IMG/VR virus record: IMGVR_UViG_3300020044_009798
Coordinates: 1-29,914 of that record
Reading direction: 5' to 3' (one strand)
Length of the DNA stretch: 29,914 nt
Source of the DNA: a virus
Taxonomy: Duplodnaviria; Caudoviricetes
Each line of letters begins with the position of its first letter. The first letter of the stretch is position 1. Both the position numbers and the translations under genes were made by a program. The notes beneath the pieces are model-generated. The model saw nothing but the letters and a program-made list of their open reading frames with translations, had not been told where the DNA came from and did not search any database. Below are positions 4,651 through 29,914 of this stretch, one piece after another.

Positions 4651-4674
4651 GCGCCGAATCTGCCGAACCATATC

Positions 4675-4711
4675 AAAAAAAATGCGCTCAGGACGGGAAT
4701 CCTGAGCGCAT
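4675..4711 (-). terminator. intrinsic terminator
   Basis: Stem TGCGCTCAGGA / TCCTGAGCGCA, 6-nt loop, T8 on the minus strand. Confidence 0.85.
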
Positions 4712-4777
4712 CTACCCCAAAAGGGTATATAATTTTTTTGATATTTTGTTTATTTAACCGTTTCACAACGGTAACGT
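4675..4777 (-). ncRNA. putative small structured RNA A
   Basis: Promoter TATCTTTG at 4789-4782, GUGA-loop hairpin 4757-4772, terminator 4683-4710 plus T8; homologous to 15412-15559. Confidence 0.6.
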
Positions 4778-4781
4778 ACTA

Positions 4782-4793
4782 CAAAGATACAAA
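4782..4793 (-). promoter_or_regulatory. Bacteroidota -7 promoter element
   Basis: TTTGTATCTTTG on the minus strand; no canonical -33 element at the expected spacing. Confidence 0.55.
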
Positions 4794-13421: not shown

Positions 13422-14470
13422 TATTTACTGGATTTTAAAATGTTTGCGAAATGATTGAAACCGTTTTTAAAGGTCGTTTTTTCGGCCTTCGGAGCTTCGG
13501 GCGTGGTCGGTGTTACTTGGGCTTGTGCCTTAACTGCTACCGTTTCTAAAGCCTTGATTTGGTTTTGTGCCTCTTGCAGTTGTGCCATTGTAGCGTTCAA
13601 TTTTTCTTCGATTGCTTCGGCCTGTTTGCTTACTGCATAACCTTTAGCTTTTAGCAATTCGATTGCTTTTTCTTCGGTAATTTCCTCAGCAGCTATCGCT
13701 TTTGGCTCTTCGATTACAACGGGTGCAACGGGTTCAGCTACCGCTTCGGCTGCCTCGTTTTTGAAACCAAAAAGAGCAGCAAGTTTGGCAAAAAAGCCCT
13801 TTGCTTCCTCTTGGGTTAATGGTGTTTTATTTTCCATTTTTGAGAAACTGTTTTTAAAATTGGGAAATTGGTTTTTAATCTGTGGATATTGGGTTGCAAG
13901 TTGTGCGGCCAAATCTTCGGTTTCTTCTTCGGGAGCTTGTTGGGGTACATCGCAGTTCACTAACTTATCAACTAGGCCCATATCTAGACATTCACTAGCC
14001 GATAAGAATTGGTCTTTGGTCATTAATTCAGCCAACATTTTTTCGGTATCAGCAACCGAGCCATTAACCAACTTTCCGTTTTTAGCGATACGGCCCACAT
14101 AATAACCCATGATGCTTTTGCTGATTTGGTCTAATTGGTCGGCAGTCTGTCTTAGCTCTTCAGACGTGCCAAAATTGCCACCCATTGCGTTATGTATCAG
14201 CATGGTGCAATTATAATCCATGTGGACTTTATCGCAGCACATAGCCACCACAGTAGCAATAGAGGCCACCGAACCGCAAAGAATTGCTTTGGTCGGCATT
14301 GGGTGCGTTTTAATCATTGTGCAAAGTTCCAAGCCTTTGAACACATCGCCGCCGTTGCTGCATATTGTTAAGTCGATGGGCATGTTGCGATTTTCCAAGA
14401 TTGTGCGTTCTGCTGCATCTTGGTAACGGCTGCCCATATCCACTATGTACCCTAATAATAATACTTCCAT
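13421..14470 (-). CDS. ClpP-type prohead protease fused to a scaffold-like region
   Basis: CSNGGDVFKG, ASIATV, MLIHNAMG and FLSA.ECL..GLVD motifs; acidic, Ala-rich coiled C-terminus. Confidence 0.92.
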   Translation of the reverse strand: MEVLLLGYIVDMGSRYQDAAERTILENRNMPIDLTICSNGGDVFKGLELCTMIKTHPMPTKAILCGSVASIATVVAMCCDKVHMDYNCTMLIHNAMGGNFGTSEELRQTADQLDQISKSIMGYYVGRIAKNGKLVNGSVADTEKMLAELMTKDQFLSASECLDMGLVDKLVNCDVPQQAPEEETEDLAAQLATQYPQIKNQFPNFKNSFSKMENKTPLTQEEAKGFFAKLAALFGFKNEAAEAVAEPVAPVVIEEPKAIAAEEITEEKAIELLKAKGYAVSKQAEAIEEKLNATMAQLQEAQNQIKALETVAVKAQAQVTPTTPEAPKAEKTTFKNGFNHFANILKSSK

Positions 14471-14489
14471 AATAAAAAAGTGTGTAACG

Positions 14490-14551
14490 CAAATTTACGC
14501 TACACACCACCCCGTTTTTTCGCAAATAATGCGAATTAATCCGTATATTTG
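14490..14551. promoter_or_regulatory. divergent promoter pair with a central palindrome
   Basis: TAAATTTG (minus, 14497-14490), TATATTTG (plus, 14544-14551), TTCGCA-aataa-TGCGAA at 14519-14535. Confidence 0.65.
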
Positions 14552-14571
14552 TAAACTAAAACTAATCGAAC

Positions 14572-14814
14572 ATGGAAAACTTTGATTTTGGACAAAGATT
14601 GCGAATGATTGGATTTAAAGAAATGGAATCCTATTATGTAAAAGCAGTAGGAGAAAAACGTTTAATCGTTACCGTCTGCGAGGGCTGCCAAACTTTTCGG
14701 GTTAAGTATGGGAATAATGGGAGTTATATCAGTATAATAGACCCGAAAAAAAACCGAATACCGCAAACAGGTGAGGAGTTTAACGAATTATTTAAAATTT
14801 TAAAGGGGGTATAA
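14572..14814 (+). CDS. moron protein 1 (MENFDFG paralog)
   Basis: 80 aa, own promoter, antisense to the structural operon. Confidence 0.75.
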   Translation: MENFDFGQRLRMIGFKEMESYYVKAVGEKRLIVTVCEGCQTFRVKYGNNGSYISIIDPKKNRIPQTGEEFNELFKILKGV

Positions 14815-15056
14815 TGGAAAACTTTGATTTTGGGAAATGGCTAGAAGATAAAGGTTTTGTTTATTGCTTTTCTGCATACTACAAAACTATTAAAAGCACG
14901 CTTTATGCGCTATCGTTGTATGATAGCGATGTATTCGATATATCTTGGATGTGTGGAAACGATAAAGGGAATGCACTTAATTTTATTCCTATACCCAAAA
15001 GCGCAGCCGAAGCTGAAGCGATATTTGACAGATACCAAATACCGCTAAAACAATAA
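14814..15056 (+). CDS. moron protein 2 (MENFDFG paralog)
   Basis: 80 aa, TAATG-coupled; first 20 nt identical to the upstream gene. Confidence 0.75.
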   Translation: MENFDFGKWLEDKGFVYCFSAYYKTIKSTLYALSLYDSDVFDISWMCGNDKGNALNFIPIPKSAAEAEAIFDRYQIPLKQ

Positions 15057-15353
15057 GCCCGAAAACCAAACGGCATAATTTTTTCTAATCTCCCACAGTT
15101 GCCGCTCTGAAATCGGCACACGCTCCAATGTCCGATGTGATGCGAGGCCACAGTCCCCACGCTTACGGCGTGCCGATACCGTTCTTTCTATTTCCTTTTT
15201 GTATATCCAAATAGCCATAAACCGCAAAATCTGTTTTTCGGTAATAATGCCCAATTGCACCAAAGCACGAAGCAGGTCGAGCGGTTTAAGGTCTGCGAAT
15301 TTAGTCGCTATTAGGGTGCAAAAATCGGCGTTTAGTTTAGATTGTTTACTCAT
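15045..15353 (-). CDS. basic protein, possible HTH regulator
   Basis: 102 aa, C-terminal ISERQLWEIRK helix resembling an HTH recognition helix; lies upstream of head genes. Confidence 0.55.
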   Translation of the reverse strand: MSKQSKLNADFCTLIATKFADLKPLDLLRALVQLGIITEKQILRFMAIWIYKKEIERTVSARRKRGDCGLASHRTLERVPISERQLWEIRKNYAVWFSGLLF

Positions 15354-15393
15354 TATTTAAATTTAGCTTACTTTTTACTCATTATTTAAATTT
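15345..15393. repeat. 20-bp direct repeat, period 29
   Basis: TTTACTCATTATTTAAATTT at 15345-15364 and 15374-15393; core TTTACTCATT again at 15557-15566. Confidence 0.9.
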
Positions 15394-15395
15394 TG

Positions 15396-15407
15396 TTTGT
15401 ATATTTG
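15396..15407 (+). promoter_or_regulatory. Bacteroidota -7 promoter element
   Basis: TTTGTATATTTG; no canonical -33 element at the expected spacing. Confidence 0.55.
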
Positions 15408-15411
15408 TCTT

Positions 15412-15559
15412 ATGAAATGGTACTGTTGGGAAACAGCAAGAAAATATCAAAGATTTATATCAAAACCGATTTAGGATGCAAACCTAAATCAAACAAACTT
15501 AGAACGCCAATTCTAGGTTTATTTGCGCTCAGGACGGCAATCCTGAGCGCATTTTTTTT
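15412..15559 (+). ncRNA. putative small structured RNA B (four hairpins)
   Basis: Hairpins at 15423-15436, 15468-15490, 15495-15520 and 15524-15551 plus T8; homologous to 4675-4777. Confidence 0.6.
15524..15559 (+). terminator. intrinsic terminator
   Basis: TGCGCTCAGGA-cggcaa-TCCTGAGCGCA-T8. Confidence 0.85.
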
Positions 15560-15818
15560 ACTCATTTTCGTAACGGGTTTCGAAATACTCTAATACTTTA
15601 TTTACGCACTTATTGCAAGATAGATAGGCCTTTAATTTGGGCGCAAATCTCTCCTCTTTTGGCTGCCATTCGTGCGGCTCGACATATCGCAAATAGATAT
15701 TAGTAAGGGTACGAATATTCGATTGTCTTACCGTAGGGGGCAAATAGCCCCCTTTATTTATCAGCTCCTTGACCTGCGCTTCAATGTCGCTAGGTATTGG
15801 CATTTCGTATATTGTCAT
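15558..15818 (-). CDS. hypothetical protein with CxxC
   Basis: 86 aa, SCNKCV; ATGA overlap with the tape measure stop. Confidence 0.7.
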   Translation of the reverse strand: MTIYEMPIPSDIEAQVKELINKGGYLPPTVRQSNIRTLTNIYLRYVEPHEWQPKEERFAPKLKAYLSCNKCVNKVLEYFETRYENE

Positions 15819-18556
15819 AATGTTCTGCGTGTGTTTATTTCCTTGCGGTCTTTGTTGTCTTTGTTAATAGCCGCTTGGGTGTTCGGTGTGAAATCTACTT
15901 GCAGTCGGTCAATACGGCCATTTACGGCTAAAATAAGTTCTGTTAGTTGGTTGTTTTGTTCTACCGCCGAATTAATAGAAGGCGGCAAAGATGGAATGGT
16001 GGGAACTATGCCACCCGTTGCAAAACCTGGCACACCTGCAAAAGCTAAAGCATCATAACCGAGCCTTTGCTGTTGGTTTTGGTTTAGTACAACCTCCCCT
16101 GTTTTTAGCGTTGTAAGTACATTGTCCCCATTACTTCGTCTTATCGGTTTGCCTGTTATATCTCGCCCAACAACGCCACCCGTAGCGAGGGGCTGCGCTG
16201 CTATTGTCGCAATTTCTACCGCTCCTAAAGCCCCCGTAATCGCTGCTGTAATAAAAGAAGCTGGAGGCGGTAACGATGCTAAAGCATTGGTTATACCTAA
16301 AGCGGTGTTAATAATAGCCTGTATAATCGCAAAGGCTTTAGCAGTTTTAGCCGCTTGTTTTTCGGCATTAGCTTTGGCTGCTGCGATTCCATCGGCGGCG
16401 GCTTTTTCCTGTGCCACCTTATTTTCCAAGTATTCGGCCTCAAATCCACTAGCGTTTTCCAATTGCGCTTCCAAGTCCGCTATATTCTTTTGACGTGCTT
16501 GTAATTGGTCATCTAACTGCTTTATTTCTCTTTGATTTACAGCATCGGCCAAAGATGCAATTGCGCCAATAACCTGCTGCCCAGTCTGTAAAACCTGTTG
16601 TATAGCGGCTAAACGGGCTGCTTTTTGTTTGTCGGTTTCGGTCTTAACTTTTTCGGTTTGCTCTTCTTCGAGCTGCGCCAATTCGGTGTTAAGCTTTTGC
16701 CGTTGTAAAACTAATTGTTGGCGTGCTTGTTCGTCAGCAAAAAGCCCATCGTTTAGGTTTTGCTGTATTAAATCGGCTTGCTCTTGTAGGTATTTTTTCC
16801 GTGCATCAAATTCAGCTTTTGCGCCTGCTTCTACCGTTTGCTCTCGCTTTGCAACTGCCTCCTGTATTTGTAGGAATTGTAATTGGTAAGCATTCTCTAA
16901 TTCCGTTAATTCGGTTTGGCTTTGCGCTATTCGCTTTTGGAATGCCGCCTCTTCTTGTTGGTTGCGTTCGATTAGCCCCTTTGCTTGTATTTCTATAAGA
17001 GCTTGTTGGTGTGCAATTGCATCCTGTTCGCTTAATTGTGCGAATGTGGTTTCGAGCTGTGCGAGCTTATCGGTCGTTTCTTTTCGGAACGCAATAACCT
17101 CTGCGCTGCCCTCTTCGTACACTTCTAAAAGCTTTGTTTCTTGCTCTTGTATCTTTGCTTTAAGGTTATTGAATTGTGCCTCTCGTTCCGCTTTTCGAAA
17201 CTCATAATTTAGCTTTTCTTGTGCGACCGCCTTTTGTCCCTCATCTTCGATATTATCTACGATTGCCTTTGATAATTCAGCTTGCAGCTTTGCAATATCA
17301 TTGGCTTGGTCTTGGTTAAACTTCTTGCTATCCTCAAAGAATTTAGCCCGTTTCTTTTCGATTTCTTCGAGCGTTTTTTGATAATCTTTGCCCTGTTTTT
17401 CGGCTGCTTTGGTTGTTTGCTTGGTAAGGTCATCAAGATTTCCGCTAAATGCTTTGGAAAAATCAAGGCCATAAGCTCCAATGTCGGTCAAAGCCTTGCG
17501 TAATGAGGCCTCAATTTGTTGGTCGTTAGCGGCTACTTTCTTTGCGGTTTCAGCATTTTGTTCTTGTACCGTTGCATTAACATTTCGAGCTATGTCAATA
17601 ATAGCAAAACCCGTAGAAACGGCACTAGCTGCACGTGCTTTGTCGGCTTCGATTTGCGCTTGGATAGCCTCGTTCAATGCCTTTTCGATTAATTCGGCAC
17701 GCTTTTTTACCACTATTTGTTCAATAATAGCAGCGTTTACAGCCTTGTAAGCATCCGCAATTTCTTGTTCTGTGGATAGTTCGGTTAATTGGTTTGGTAG
17801 GTAGGTAGAATATTGTTCGTTAATGGCTGCCAATGCTTTTGCCCGTTCTTCTTGGGTTGCATTAACATCGGTAACCGCCGCAAAAAGAAAATCCAATTGC
17901 GCCCGTTCGTCTGTATATTCGCTTATAGCCTCCTTTGTCCCCTCGTTTACTAATTTTTGGGTACGGTATTGAGCATCTAAAGCGGTGTTTAATTGGTCTA
18001 TCGCATCCACAGCACCACGAACACCATTAGCAAGCATATTACCAATCGCACCGATACCACCACGACCGATTAAGCCTGAACTTAGTATTGTGCTTTTAAG
18101 CTCCCCAAACAGCCCCTTCAAACTGCCTGCGTAATTGCCTACATTGCGCCCAAACACACCCGTTGCACTATCCACCCGTTTTAATTGCGAATCTAGTCTA
18201 GCAGCTTCAAGGCGTGCAGCTTCGAGCTGCTCCCGTGTAACATTCCCACCCTTTATCGCTTCAGCTCCTAGCTGCTTAAAGCGTTCCCGTGCAACAAATA
18301 GTTGTGCTGATAATTGCTTATAGCTGCCGATGGTTGAATCTTTCGCCTCAAATTCGGCTTGGGCTAGTTTGGCTTGGGCTTGGGCTTTTTTTAGTTCCGT
18401 TTGCAACCGTGCCAAATCCTTTAAGAGTTGGTCGGCCACCGTTGGGTCATCGGTTTTAGATAGGTCTTTCTTTAGCTGCTTAATTTGCTTTTGCAGCTCA
18501 AATACTTCTTTAGAGCCCTTGATATCTATCTCGAAAACTACTTTTTTAGTTGCCAT
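15815..18556 (-). CDS. tape measure-like protein
   Basis: 913 aa, long Ala/Glu/Gln/Lys-rich helical protein; RNVGNY motif and C-terminal ATGGVV...GEVVLN. Confidence 0.8.
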   Translation of the reverse strand: MATKKVVFEIDIKGSKEVFELQKQIKQLKKDLSKTDDPTVADQLLKDLARLQTELKKAQAQAKLAQAEFEAKDSTIGSYKQLSAQLFVARERFKQLGAEAIKGGNVTREQLEAARLEAARLDSQLKRVDSATGVFGRNVGNYAGSLKGLFGELKSTILSSGLIGRGGIGAIGNMLANGVRGAVDAIDQLNTALDAQYRTQKLVNEGTKEAISEYTDERAQLDFLFAAVTDVNATQEERAKALAAINEQYSTYLPNQLTELSTEQEIADAYKAVNAAIIEQIVVKKRAELIEKALNEAIQAQIEADKARAASAVSTGFAIIDIARNVNATVQEQNAETAKKVAANDQQIEASLRKALTDIGAYGLDFSKAFSGNLDDLTKQTTKAAEKQGKDYQKTLEEIEKKRAKFFEDSKKFNQDQANDIAKLQAELSKAIVDNIEDEGQKAVAQEKLNYEFRKAEREAQFNNLKAKIQEQETKLLEVYEEGSAEVIAFRKETTDKLAQLETTFAQLSEQDAIAHQQALIEIQAKGLIERNQQEEAAFQKRIAQSQTELTELENAYQLQFLQIQEAVAKREQTVEAGAKAEFDARKKYLQEQADLIQQNLNDGLFADEQARQQLVLQRQKLNTELAQLEEEQTEKVKTETDKQKAARLAAIQQVLQTGQQVIGAIASLADAVNQREIKQLDDQLQARQKNIADLEAQLENASGFEAEYLENKVAQEKAAADGIAAAKANAEKQAAKTAKAFAIIQAIINTALGITNALASLPPPASFITAAITGALGAVEIATIAAQPLATGGVVGRDITGKPIRRSNGDNVLTTLKTGEVVLNQNQQQRLGYDALAFAGVPGFATGGIVPTIPSLPPSINSAVEQNNQLTELILAVNGRIDRLQVDFTPNTQAAINKDNKDRKEINTRRTL

Positions 18557-20751
18557 TATAAGTACAATATGTTTGAAACAAAACCCTGAACGGGGCTATT
18601 TGAAAAGCTGTTTATATCTTCGGTCTCGTCGGGTTGGTCGAGCTGCAAAACTACCTTTGTAGGCTCAACCGACATCGGTTTGTAACCGTTCACTTCTTGC
18701 AATATCCAACCCGTGCCACCTAGCAGAATCTTATCCCTAAATGTAAGATTTAGTATATCCACAGCATTCAAATATAGATTGGTACTTCGTGTGCGGCCTG
18801 AACGAATGCGAGCCATATCACGCAGGTAGAATCGTTTTGCAAGGCCTTGAACGGTGATGCCGTTTAAGGTTTGGTCAGAGTAGGATAGACAAGGGTCTAA
18901 ACCCGTTAAATCGTTGTAATTTACGGCCCATGTTTGGGGCATTTGTGCCGATTGTATATTTCCAACGGTATCAATAATGCGTAAGGTTACATCACTACGA
19001 AGCCCATCATAATACAAAATTCTAGGTTTATACGATTGTACTTTGTCCGTTTGCGTTGGGTCTTCGTTATAATCCGCAGCCATCAGCATTGGCACTAAAA
19101 CCGTTTTAGTACTTGTTGGCCATGTGATAGTCGGGTCTATTAAGTGCATAGTAGGGGCAAAAAACGAATTTTCTAGCACTTGGTCGCCCTCTTCAAAGCG
19201 GTTGGTATTTCGTGTGCATCTTGATTCGTATAGGGTAAAAATACCGTTTACTTCGCTGCTTTTGACCGTTGGGTCATTATCATCGGCTTGGTACTTGAAG
19301 ACCGTAATATTAGGCACGTTATCGGGGTTAAATTCATCGCTCGTACTATCGCTCACCACCCATTTGTTATTACTATCGGTCGTTACATTGCGCAAAAAAC
19401 CCTGTTCTACTTGGCTTGTAGCAGGTTGCAATTGGTATAAATACGGGTCTTTGGGTTCTATCGTAACAATTTGGCGGGCTACGTCTGTTTCGTATTGCAA
19501 ATTAAACAACTCCCCAAAGCCACGCAAAAAATCGGCACACGTCCAATCTTGCAGCAAATAGGCAAAGTCTATTGGTGCGCCGAGCGTTATTTCTGCCGCC
19601 TCTCCAAAGACTTCTACTTTAGCGTATGTAACGTCGAAACTCTCGCCAACAGCAGGGTCGGGGCCCCAAACAATGTAGGTATTTAAAACACTATTTAAGT
19701 CTATAAACACAATAAAAGAACCCGTAATAGTTTGACCATTTACAACGTCTTGATGTGATGCATTCCCACTTATAGCACCTGCGCCCGTTACTAATAAAGC
19801 AATATCTACATTTCCGCTCCCTGTTAATATATTGTCAATTGTTAATGCGTAAAATATTTTATAGTAGCCCCTAGCCCTAGCAGTATAAGCGCCTGCGAAA
19901 CTAGCACCAAATACAACCGAATCTTGGAACGGGTCAGGTGCAACAGGTGGGGCTATGTGGCTATTAAAATCTAAACCAGCACCCGTAACACCCACAGCAC
20001 CCGTGTAAGTTATCGGTACATTGCGCTCCCAACTTCCATCTAAGTAAGCAGCGTTAAATTCTTTTGGGTATTTGGATGGTAGAATAGTAGGCAAAACAAG
20101 CCCTAAAACGTAATCGGAATAGATGAAATTGGAGTTTATTGTATAGCCTAAATAGTTAAAAATCTTTTCGATTAGGGGCTGTATAAATAGGAATGGTTGG
20201 AACTCATCTACTTGTACGCAATACTCACCAATGGCCTGCTGATACTTCCAATCCATCAACTTCCAAACGTTGTAATTATAGTTACGCACGGGCGGCAAAG
20301 AGCCTAAAAACGGTAATATATTAGCTTGTGTGTAGTCGTGCCGTTCTGCGCTCCAATCTAAATCAGATAGGGGCAACGCTCCAAGTTGTACTATCCAATC
20401 GCTATTTCCACCATACAAGGCTACTTTGTACCCGATGCCATTTGCGCCGTAATGCGAGGGGGTTAGAATGGCCTCTTTTAATTGTGCTTGGCCTTCAATA
20501 ACGGGCAGTCCCTCCGCTTCCAAGTACATACGTTTATACTCCGTACCTGCTTTTATATCTTGCAAAGCATCCCACCATTGCGAAAAAATCGTATCGTTTG
20601 TTTTCGATGCTGGCAAAGAGATAGAACGCTCCGAAGATGCCCCCGCAGGCGTAAACCCGTTAGATGCTCGGTAGCTTAGCTCTATGCCAAAATCCTCCGC
20701 AGGCAGGTCGCAAACTTGGCTGTCTATGTATAGTTTGATGTACTTTTGCAT
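18556..20751 (-). CDS. tail structural protein (hub/tip)
   Basis: 731 aa; SISLPASKTND..F, DFLRG..ELFNL and PRILYY motifs; adjacent to tape measure. Confidence 0.7.
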   Translation of the reverse strand: MQKYIKLYIDSQVCDLPAEDFGIELSYRASNGFTPAGASSERSISLPASKTNDTIFSQWWDALQDIKAGTEYKRMYLEAEGLPVIEGQAQLKEAILTPSHYGANGIGYKVALYGGNSDWIVQLGALPLSDLDWSAERHDYTQANILPFLGSLPPVRNYNYNVWKLMDWKYQQAIGEYCVQVDEFQPFLFIQPLIEKIFNYLGYTINSNFIYSDYVLGLVLPTILPSKYPKEFNAAYLDGSWERNVPITYTGAVGVTGAGLDFNSHIAPPVAPDPFQDSVVFGASFAGAYTARARGYYKIFYALTIDNILTGSGNVDIALLVTGAGAISGNASHQDVVNGQTITGSFIVFIDLNSVLNTYIVWGPDPAVGESFDVTYAKVEVFGEAAEITLGAPIDFAYLLQDWTCADFLRGFGELFNLQYETDVARQIVTIEPKDPYLYQLQPATSQVEQGFLRNVTTDSNNKWVVSDSTSDEFNPDNVPNITVFKYQADDNDPTVKSSEVNGIFTLYESRCTRNTNRFEEGDQVLENSFFAPTMHLIDPTITWPTSTKTVLVPMLMAADYNEDPTQTDKVQSYKPRILYYDGLRSDVTLRIIDTVGNIQSAQMPQTWAVNYNDLTGLDPCLSYSDQTLNGITVQGLAKRFYLRDMARIRSGRTRSTNLYLNAVDILNLTFRDKILLGGTGWILQEVNGYKPMSVEPTKVVLQLDQPDETEDINSFSNSPVQGFVSNILYL

Positions 20752-28342: not shown

Positions 28343-29646
28343 TGTGCTTGTTGGTAGTTTTCAAATTTGAAATAATATCCTGAGTAGCGAATGCGCTCGC
28401 AGGCTGTTTGCCCCTCTCTATTCTTTGCAATATAAATATCAGCTTTGCCGATTGAATCCTCACCATCCTCAAATTGCATTATCCCCTCTTTTTCGGGCCG
28501 ATGTATAAGTAGTATTTTAGATGCGCAATTCTCCAAAGCCTGCGCCCCTAGTAAATCGGCGGCGGTTGGTCGTGAGCCTAATTTGTTTTTTCTTAGCTGC
28601 GAGGCTGCTATGACAGGAACACCTAAATGTTTTTTAATATTCATCAGCTCTCGAGCCACAAAAGAAGAAGATTCGTTTTGGTCTTTGAAAAAGCGGCCCG
28701 TTGGAATGAGCTGCATATAATCAATAAAAATGCCGTTTATTTTATGTTGGCAGCTCGCAGCTATACACTTTGCCCGTAGCACCTCAATACTCATTCCCCC
28801 ACAATCGAAAATATGTAAAAGGTTTTTTTCGATTTTCTCATTTATCCAAAGACGGGCTAATTTATATCTTTGCCGCTCATCTTCGGACATCGTACCCATT
28901 TTTATATTTTGGGCCATTACTTCAGCTTTGGCAGAAATTAAGCGTATCAGAAGCTTTTTTGTACTCATTTCGTAGGAAAAAACCGCACAACTTTTTCCGT
29001 TTTCTAGGAATGAAGAAACGATATTGAACATTAAGGCTGTTTTGCCTACGCCTGAATCAGCGCCAATCACAAAAAAATCGTCGTTTTCCACTCCGCCGCA
29101 AATATTTTTATCTAAATCCGTTATTCCTGTACTTACGGGACTATTTGCAGGATTATAAACACCATCAGCATCATTGTCGATTCCTTGTAAAATATCGCTT
29201 AAATTATCTTCGGTTTTTGTAAGTTTGTCTGTTACTTCCATAACAGAACGCTGTGCATATCCTACTGTTTCCAAAATATCTACCGAAGCATCAAAAGCGG
29301 ATTTTTGCGTTATGTCGCTAATTTTTATTAGCTCACGGCGCATAGTTACCTGTTTTAAGCATTGGACATGATATTCTAAATTAGCCGTACTTCCTACGGT
29401 GTTAGAAATATCCATCACGTCCATAATATCACCGCCACTAGCTACAAAAGCCTGCCCGACTGTTAGTAGGTCAATTTTGCCGTTGTTTTTCGCTATGCCT
29501 TGAATAGCTTTAAATATTGCGGCGTGATGCGCTGTATAAAAATCGTTTTCCGTTAATGGCTGCTGATTCATAACACGATAATACGCCATTGAATCTATTA
29601 ACATAGCCCCTAAAATCGCACGCTCTAAATTAGGCTGCGAGGGGAA
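28324..29646 (-). CDS. dnaB: replicative DnaB-family helicase, 5' end interrupted
   Basis: GADSGVGKT, FSYEMS, IDYMQL, ASQL and IAKNREG; frame continues upstream as FPSQPNLERAILGAM to the junction near 29641. Confidence 0.93.
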   Translation of the reverse strand, partial: FPSQPNLERAILGAMLIDSMAYYRVMNQQPLTENDFYTAHHAAIFKAIQGIAKNNGKIDLLTVGQAFVASGGDIMDVMDISNTVGSTANLEYHVQCLKQVTMRRELIKISDITQKSAFDASVDILETVGYAQRSVMEVTDKLTKTEDNLSDILQGIDNDADGVYNPANSPVSTGITDLDKNICGGVENDDFFVIGADSGVGKTALMFNIVSSFLENGKSCAVFSYEMSTKKLLIRLISAKAEVMAQNIKMGTMSEDERQRYKLARLWINEKIEKNLLHIFDCGGMSIEVLRAKCIAASCQHKINGIFIDYMQLIPTGRFFKDQNESSSFVARELMNIKKHLGVPVIAASQLRKNKLGSRPTAADLLGAQALENCASKILLIHRPEKEGIMQFEDGEDSIGKADIYIAKNREGQTACERIRYSGYYFKFENYQQAQWNSAF

Positions 29647-29914
29647 TGAGTATTGAGGTGTTACGAGCGAAGTGTATAGCTGCGAGCTGCCAACATAAAA
29701 TAAACGGCATTTTTATTGATTATATGCAGCTTATTCCAACGGGCCGCTTTTTCAAAGACCAGAACGAATCTTCTTCTTTTGTGGCTCGTGAGCTGATGAA
29801 TATCAAAAAACATTTAGGTGTTCCTGTTATAGCAGCCTCGCAGCTAAGAAAAAACAAATTAGGCTCACGACCAACCGCCGCCGATTTACTAGGGGCGCAG
29901 GCTTTGGAGAATTG
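29641..29914 (+). repeat. 274-bp inverted copy of dnaB internal segment 28526-28799
   Basis: Reverse-complement match with 8 substitutions, running to the window end. Confidence 0.95.

Follow-up and report, generated by a model that had tools for sequence, protein, structure and literature searches.

The window analysed here, a stretch of DNA of 29,914 nucleotides, is an entire record (G000) and represents a fragment of a tailed freshwater bacteriophage. A terminase, a portal protein, a ClpP-type protease, an amidase, a methylase and a DnaB-like helicase were recognised in it. The replication and late genes are located on the minus strand from position 29604 to 4805, and the accessory genes on the plus strand are preceded by promoters of the TAnnTTTG class. 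These promoters, a close match of the 102-aa protein encoded at the locus in the ESM Atlas, which is mostly from Bacteroidota, and the bins containing relatives of the portal protein (a Bacteroidia bin and a Sediminibacterium bin among seven genome loci) make a Bacteroidota host likely. The locus of interest, termed copy B, lies between two late genes that code for an 86-aa CxxC protein and for the 102-aa protein. The latter possibly contains a C-terminal helix-turn-helix, and its nearest named Atlas cluster is Mor-like at 0.76, which is a lead only. The alignment of the 86-aa protein is too variable to serve as a search query, and IMG/VR searches with single proteins (the 102-aa protein, a 331-aa protein and P0014) returned no relative. 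A second accessory insert (14544-15056, plus strand) possesses its own TATATTTG box and two tandem 80-aa genes, both of whose products start with MENFDFG; these were without a match in Pfam and PHROG, and the Atlas gave uncharacterised look-alikes only. Immediately before the ClpP gene there is a minus-strand terminator (14479-14508) whose loop contains a TAAATTTG box, so that a promoter may be built into it. At the end of the contig, an inverted repeat of 274 nt (28526-28799 and 29641-29914, 97%) overlaps the DnaB-like gene and is probably a fold-back artefact from amplification or assembly.

Table 1. Features of copy B, of its insertion site and of copy A.
Feature	Position	Strand	Remarks
86-aa CxxC gene	15558..15818	-	upstream flank of copy B in the late operon
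102-aa gene	15045..15353	-	downstream flank of copy B; weak Mor-like lead
212-nt insertion, 30% GC	15355..15566		between late genes; ends can slide within a 10-nt direct repeat
Direct repeat TTTACTCATT, copy 1	15345..15354		contains the start codon of the 102-aa gene (- strand)
Direct repeat, copy 2	15374..15383		belongs to a local tandem duplication of 29 nt ahead of the promoter
Direct repeat, copy 3	15557..15566		contains the stop codon of the 86-aa gene
-7 box TATATTTG, Bacteroidota sigma-A	15400..15407	+	sequence motif; predicted use
5' module TA-CT-GTTG overlapping H1 (CTGTT-GGGA-AACAG, GNRA loop)	15421..15436	+	common to copy A and late leaders
A-rich linker, mostly unpaired, ATATCAAA twice	15437..15467	+	ATATCAAA at 15444-15451 and 15457-15464
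Stem H2, 8 bp, 7-nt loop with GCAA	15468..15490	+	GATTTAGG/CCTAAATC, 15468-15475/15483-15490
Stem H3, 10 bp including one G-U	15495..15520	+	AAACTTAGAA/TTCTAGGTTT, 15495-15504/15511-15520
Intrinsic terminator, 11 bp and U8	15524..15559	+	hairpin 15524-15551, T8 15552-15559
Copy A	4675..4789	-	-7 box 4789-4782; module and H1 4773-4757; ATATCAAA 4744-4737
Copy A, 3' part	4710-4675	-	small stem upstream; terminator 4710-4683; U8 4682-4675

Copy B extends over positions 15400-15559 of the plus strand and combines a promoter box of the Bacteroidota -7 class with four stems and a terminator that ends in a U8 tract (Table 1). In PMC9723704 the -7 box is placed at -12 to -5; transcription of copy B is therefore predicted to start at 15412 and to yield an RNA of about 148 nt. 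A search for sigma-70 promoters gave none at copy B, and direct reading found no -33 TTTG at 19-21 nt from the -7 box; the TAnnTTTG motif occurs 37 times in the contig. The letters TA-CT-GTTG of the 5' module resemble the -7 box. Copy B is probably transcribed. The longest sense ORF within the predicted transcript comprises 20 codons and starts at the predicted +1; on the minus strand, a 36-codon ORF (15455-15565) overlaps copy B. The latter was considered as a possible type I toxin partner, gave no hit in PHROG and appears to have arisen as a by-product when the start codon was duplicated. Copy A preserves neither of the two frames, and every long ORF downstream of copy B is on the opposite strand. 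The initial annotation had described a promoter and a T-tailed terminator that face the plus strand inside a minus-strand operon with no real gene between them, two stems beyond those shared with copy A, a terminator-like apex of H3 with a compensatory change, a repeated ATATCAAA, and a family relationship to copy A. All of these features were recovered, the promoter as a Bacteroidota -7 box.

The region 15420-15562 folds at -43.6 kcal/mol (z -6.61), and none of 200 shuffled sequences folded as well. Without its terminator, copy B has a z of -3.5 (1 of 300 shuffles), and H2 and H3 by themselves reach a z of -5.7 (0 of 300). The best z among 426 windows of the contig (-8.5, determined with only 12 shuffles per window) belongs to 15471-15610. 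The plus strand is favoured by the U8 tract and by the G-U pair of H3, which becomes a C-A mismatch on the minus strand; the corresponding energies are -8.3 and -5.1 kcal/mol. The remaining stems fold about equally well on either strand. H2 is followed by a U-rich tail when read on the minus strand and scores also as a minus-strand terminator. In a test for pseudoknots and kissing loops, no pairing of at least 7 nt was found between the 5' end or the 5' loop of copy B and the terminator loop. Antisense targets of the 5' end and the linkers were sought in the contig, which is incomplete, and no convincing duplex was obtained: the best matches of copy B lie inside a gene (12-nt match) or on the non-coding strand.

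Copy A is located past the late operon and points in the same direction as the latter. With three scoring schemes, the alignment of the two bodies, from the promoter to the 3' stems, surpassed those of all 5000 shuffles and all 5344 window tiles; under stricter local scoring the result is weaker (14 of 3000 shuffles). The terminators have 28 of 29 letters in common on the plus strand though the units point in opposite ways. Their arms are identical and the loop is inverted, reading TTCCCG in the transcript of copy A versus CGGCAA in that of copy B. Between A and B, one pair of H1 is changed on both sides (U-A versus C-G), and ATATCAAA occurs once in copy A and twice in copy B. A sequence-blind scan for a box and a terminator without an ORF gave 24 candidates over the window and 87 related loci, and in the window it returned exactly copies A and B. 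As these alignments indicate, A and B are homologous and form a family of two members. The antisense strand of copy A (4669-4746, plus strand) folds as a three-way junction with a closing stem of 12-13 bp (ATATCAAAAAA/TTTTTTGATAT); copy B is devoid of this closing arm. Further gene-less units of promoter and terminator were seen in related phages, on the minus strand of L140 at 5973 (counted on that strand), in L082 at 6070, and in L074 at 6146 and its kin. In the L140 unit the 5' loop is complementary to the terminator loop, and a class of 63-68 nt lies directly before ClpP in several related loci.

The 212-nt insertion that contains copy B has a GC content of 30%, against a value of about 41% for comparison, and TTTACTCATT flanks it with one further repeat inside. 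An empty site was found in run X2. A contig of 188 nt from a phage that is about 90% identical maps to 15557-15731 with 17 differences, and 11 loose letters of this contig continue MSKQSKL, the start of the 102-aa gene (chance about 1 in 100,000). This relative lacks the 212 nt, and in it the two genes overlap, the 86-aa gene with its stop and the 102-aa gene with its start. Note that the empty site is represented by one contig reaching 11 letters past the junction, which is under the 31-letter bar for bridging. A contig from run X3 is identical over 15434-15637; it possibly stems from the same strain or source and was not counted as independent. Runs X1 and X4 are without cover over the insert and were not used as evidence of absence. 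Among 32 distinct related loci (37 rows minus 5 duplicates), the flanking genes, i.e. the CxxC gene that follows the tape-measure gene and the next gene, overlap in 29; in the three loci L126, L128 and L142 the junction is filled by a small ORF on the opposite strand. These loci are distant relatives with portal proteins 27-44% identical, and orthology at the junction was deduced from gene order and the CxxC pattern. The comparison identifies copy B as an insertion that is missing from a close relative, which was overlooked in the first reading of the locus. The junction is a site for accessory inserts, here with one that lacks a protein payload.

Searches with Rfam 15 gave no match in the window and none at E<=5 in 14400-15900; around copy A, 16 sub-threshold matches were all far below gathering. 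Outside this phage, no full-length homologue was found in IMG/VR, JGI metagenomes, INPHARED and PLSDB, nor in genomes of the class Bacteroidia (401 searched by pattern, 151 by a covariance model without positive control). The covariance model R1, built from two sequences, recovered A and B but no further member at E<0.5 in 87 sources. The terminator pattern had no match in IMG/VR and 53 in JGI metagenomes, none of them a relative; L038 alone aligns to the window, across the 36-nt terminator only. Several candidate identities were rejected. The pattern GTTGNGAAACRG..AATATCAAA matched 18 IMG/VR loci, all in coding-like context and none homologous. ATATCAAA, a suspected marker of Bacteroidota antirepressor leaders, was found at 16 distinct places (24 rows) in 12 of 41 genomes versus 13 control matches, and no common structure was seen at these places. 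The terminator of copy B reads GGA-N6-TCC, and a Bacteroidetes LexA-like operator is GGA-N5-TCC or CTAA-N5-TTAG; according to PMC8565304, spacer changes abolish binding. The alignment excerpts of GUCCY-hairpin, Flavo-1 and Bacteroides-2 from the supplement of PMC2864571 are unlike copy B by eye. In the limited literature searched, no earlier account of the ORF-less insert or of the leader module described below for phage lillamy9-5 was found.

The part common to both copies, TA-nn-GTTG-NG-AAAC-R, follows just after the promoter. A scan for the -7 box and TAC-YGTTG-N-GAAAC gave six IMG/VR loci. Four of them are intergenic late leaders, and three of these, two being near-identical, precede a portal-like or tail gene: L234/L236 and L237 are located just before the gene after the terminase, a portal by similarity. 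The two others, L235 and L238, appear to be chance matches in coding sequence. In the temperate phage G403, promoter, module, terminator and late gene succeed each other (L233, position 16342), and a second module lies before its portal gene. The module is also present in the portal leader of the cultured Flavobacterium phage lillamy9-5, which had been selected for the similarity of its portal protein irrespective of the motif; here only 3 pairs form. It is missing from four of five cultured lineages picked by protein (phi19:1, JQ, Arctus_1 and Freya_3). An alignment of seven leaders shows an invariant core, GUU-GNGA-AAC, with pairing in 32 of 35 cells, and two of the five pairs, the outer ones, change on both sides; four of the seven rows were found by, or are the source of, a pattern demanding most of the module letters, and a fifth came from the same pattern. 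Covariation of the module is weak (17 of 500 shuffles). Copies A and B are the sole places in the window where the module follows a -7 box (2 observed versus 0.34 expected), and hence the contig offers no downstream gene on the sense strand that could be switched on. In 121 host genomes the same combination gave 6 matches versus 7 in the control, i.e. it is neither enriched nor host-wide. Since the same cap tops a terminator-like hairpin in L095, the module may simply be a common stable hairpin. Two readings of the module are conceivable, a GNRA hairpin and, as at lambdoid late promoters (PMC5001585), a repeated -7 box that a pause sequence follows; the latter fits partly.

Late promoters with TA-nn-GTTG-TG-AAAC were seen in G403:C1 at 16342, 28879 and 30801 (minus strand), in L237 at 985-1046 and in L256 at 20092-20125. 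In the three promoters of G403, the -7 box is immediately preceded by a palindrome, AGTATAA..TTATACT; the terminase gene of this phage adjoins a 72-aa gene with no assigned function. These features of Flavobacterium-type phages possibly belong to a late-control system, of which the literature searched gave no description; a search for a reader of the hairpin gave no Q-like match among 20 G403 proteins. In L141 (2163-2190), a ClpP gene has its ATG at the predicted +1 of a TATAATTG box. This start matches the promoter and the first 11 transcribed letters of copy B at 21 of 23 positions, which may be due to chance (E 0.54).

The initial annotation had deduced from the similar stems that an internal duplication created a multivalent, protein-titrating decoy. 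H3 and the terminator are identical in 9 of the 12 letters of arm and loop (p ~3e-4), and of their ten pairs four are the same, five are changed on both sides and one is changed on one side; in H2, read by eye, four of eight pairs are changed on both sides. The pattern of H3 and the terminator would suit a duplication followed by selection on pairing, and also the independent use of a favoured cap. Three related stems with a similar apex and lower stems changed on both sides are what selection on a repeated site would leave, and AGGA occurs in the 5' arms of H2 and the terminator. However, the terminator loop is inverted in copy A and the apex is therefore not a family feature, there are only three repeats, and their GGA is paired and not in loops. 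Moreover, CsrA (PF02599) was detected in 1 of 61 genomes of the class Bacteroidia (the control was detected in 3 of 14). The pairing of GGA and the rarity of CsrA leave little support for stems that act as repeated binding sites of a CsrB-like multivalent sponge, and we consider such a function very unlikely: the related stems are supported, and their apex as the source of valency is not. The apex pattern occurs at 49 IMG/VR loci in 29 distinct contexts. Among 20 loci picked from these matches, 11 hold a C4 RNA of Rfam and 9 an isrK match, and relative to the isrK/c4-a1b1 leader hairpin the apex of copy B is the reverse complement. In a C4-like reading, the loops of the three 3' stems (H2, H3 and terminator) would correspond to the a' segment of C4 and base-pair with a1-type loops that rival prophages carry in their immunity leaders, which would make copy B a multi-specific immunity RNA that acts in trans; CI RNA works by such pairing (PMC4825925). 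There is only a slight chance that this applies. Copy A has the opposite orientation, copy B possesses neither the C4 fold nor an Rfam match, and the 12-nt match within a gene is the best duplex in the contig, where no convincing target was found. The apex was found in 1 of 151 genomes of the class Bacteroidia (C4 in none of them, with the control likewise undetected). Several other apex loci resemble terminators on the strand that matches the orientation of copy A, and the cap tops plain terminators in unrelated phages, too.

A possible, if somewhat unlikely, function would be that of a brake in cis. The convergent promoter with a promoter-proximal pause would block or collide with late transcription, or the antisense RNA and the minus-strand stems would lead to cleavage or attenuation of the late mRNA directly ahead of the 102-aa gene, a gene that the insertion has uncoupled from the one preceding it. 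Copy B lies entirely antisense to the late mRNA, at a junction where the two genes overlap in 29 of 32 relatives, and H2 scores as a terminator of the minus strand; G403 shows the order promoter, module, terminator and gene at 16342. TAnnGTTG has five of the six fixed letters of TAnnTTTG in all seven leaders, five rows being selected for, or the source of, the TA; the TA stands two letters before GTTG in 7 of 7, including the two that were not selected for it. G at -10 and C at -1 (7 of 7 leaders) fit the elemental pause (PMC5001585), but G at +1 is found in 2 of 7 leaders and not in copy B, and the pause would occur 6 nt after the box instead of 10-11 nt as in lambda. Both the U8 tract and the G-U pair in H3 speak for the plus strand, and copy A has the module yet sits past the end of the late operon in the same orientation, a position that a brake leaves unexplained. 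No Q-family antiterminator was found among the 45 proteins of the window, the contig being incomplete. It is unlikely that copy B is a functionless relic, that is, a moron or a captured late promoter-leader-terminator whose ORF was lost or never present and whose stems were maintained by template-switch correction of palindromes and not by selection. Its presence in one strain and absence from another, the lack of a homologue elsewhere, the ORF-bearing inserts at the same junction in 3 of 32 relatives and the 21 of 23 matches to the ClpP start of L141 (E 0.54) agree with a relic, as does the inverted loop between A and B, since such a loop is a mark of palindrome-driven inversion. On the other hand, two homologous copies at separate sites keep an unpaired linker and the 5' module, the difference in H1 changes both sides, and template switching would remove the G-U pair of H3. 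A leaderless mRNA for a peptide of 20 residues (15412-15474) with a structured 3' UTR would explain the ATG exactly at the predicted +1 and is extremely improbable: copy A is without such an ATG or frame, ATG is not enriched at this distance in 88 sequences, and leaderless mRNAs make up 3.7-5.5% in Bacteroidota (PMC9723704, PMC7366714).

Because the single 5' hairpin is conserved, it is a better candidate for a decoy than the repeated apex. We tentatively propose, with less than even confidence, that copy B is a moron-like small-RNA gene that displays the late-leader hairpin as a decoy. The payload of the insertion would then be RNA rather than protein. The host RNA polymerase with sigma-A would start near 15412, stop at the U8 tract and release the RNA of about 148 nt. 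Less surely, this RNA would present in trans its 5' hairpin (GUU-GNGA-AAC with a GNRA loop) and the A-rich linker, and the displayed hairpin would bind and sequester a protein that reads the same hairpin in late leaders. The late leaders of the window itself are without the module, and so the target would be the regulator of another phage or a host factor; the reader may be a regulator of late genes in a competing Flavobacterium-type phage, or a factor of the host that such phages use. As the contig is incomplete, a target within the phage itself is conceivable. The stems H2 and H3 probably originated together with the terminator hairpin, or as duplicates of it, and would protect the 3' part of the RNA; they are possible extra binding sites, for which copy A offers no support. 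Two units without a gene that both retain a late-leader hairpin and an A-rich linker, and that have no sense gene behind them, are most simply explained by such a decoy. The initial interpretation is partly supported, its focus having moved from the duplicated 3' stems to the 5' module. It is decidedly improbable, as a further extension, that ORF-less mobile morons titrate the late-gene regulator of a rival and thereby cause superinfection exclusion by RNA only, with the loops of copy B complementing C4-type immunity leaders as well. If this were true, copy B would be a modular anti-phage RNA built from the late-leader hairpin of rival Bacteroidota phages.

Copy B is an accessory phage insert with a presumed RNA payload; the two units, A and B, were found in one phage fragment only. 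An ORF-less moron that is gained and lost within a natural phage population and reuses a late-leader hairpin of cultured Flavobacterium phages would point to small RNAs in phage-phage or phage-host control in Bacteroidota, for which PMC7366714 states no obvious homologue of Hfq or ProQ. The lillamy portal-leader module would bear on the switch-on of late genes, and a cultured system exists.

Copy B can be compared with four known systems. CsrB, RsmY and RsmZ are protein-sequestering sRNAs with many GGA motifs exposed in hairpin loops. Copy B is likewise gene-less and contains several hairpins and AGGA letters; in contrast, its GGA is in stems, it has three repeats only, and CsrA is rare in the likely host class. 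With C4 (RF01695), c4-a1b1 (RF03163), isrK (RF01394) and the P4 CI RNA it has in common that its three 3' stems carry the reverse-complement apex; it is without the C4 fold, the a1/b1-a2/b2 operon and an adjacent antirepressor gene, and the orientation in copy A is opposite. In lambda, the 6S RNA and tR' are part of the late leader, pR'-6S RNA-tR'. A sigma-dependent pause belongs to this leader (PMC5001585). Like the lambda arrangement, copy B has a promoter whose box is repeated in the initially transcribed bases, followed by a short leader and a strong terminator, and the same module precedes late genes in Flavobacterium-type phages. Unlike pR'-tR', copies A and B have no sense gene downstream, belong to the Bacteroidota promoter class and have a shorter spacing to the pause. 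Phage morons are cassettes of promoter, gene and terminator inserted between conserved late genes and are thought of as protein cassettes. Copy B resembles them in its insertion between genes that are adjacent in relatives, in its own host-type promoter and terminator, both present as motifs, in its low GC content and in its presence in some strains only. It differs from them in having no protein-coding payload; its predicted product is a structured RNA that has a paralogue at another site of the genome.
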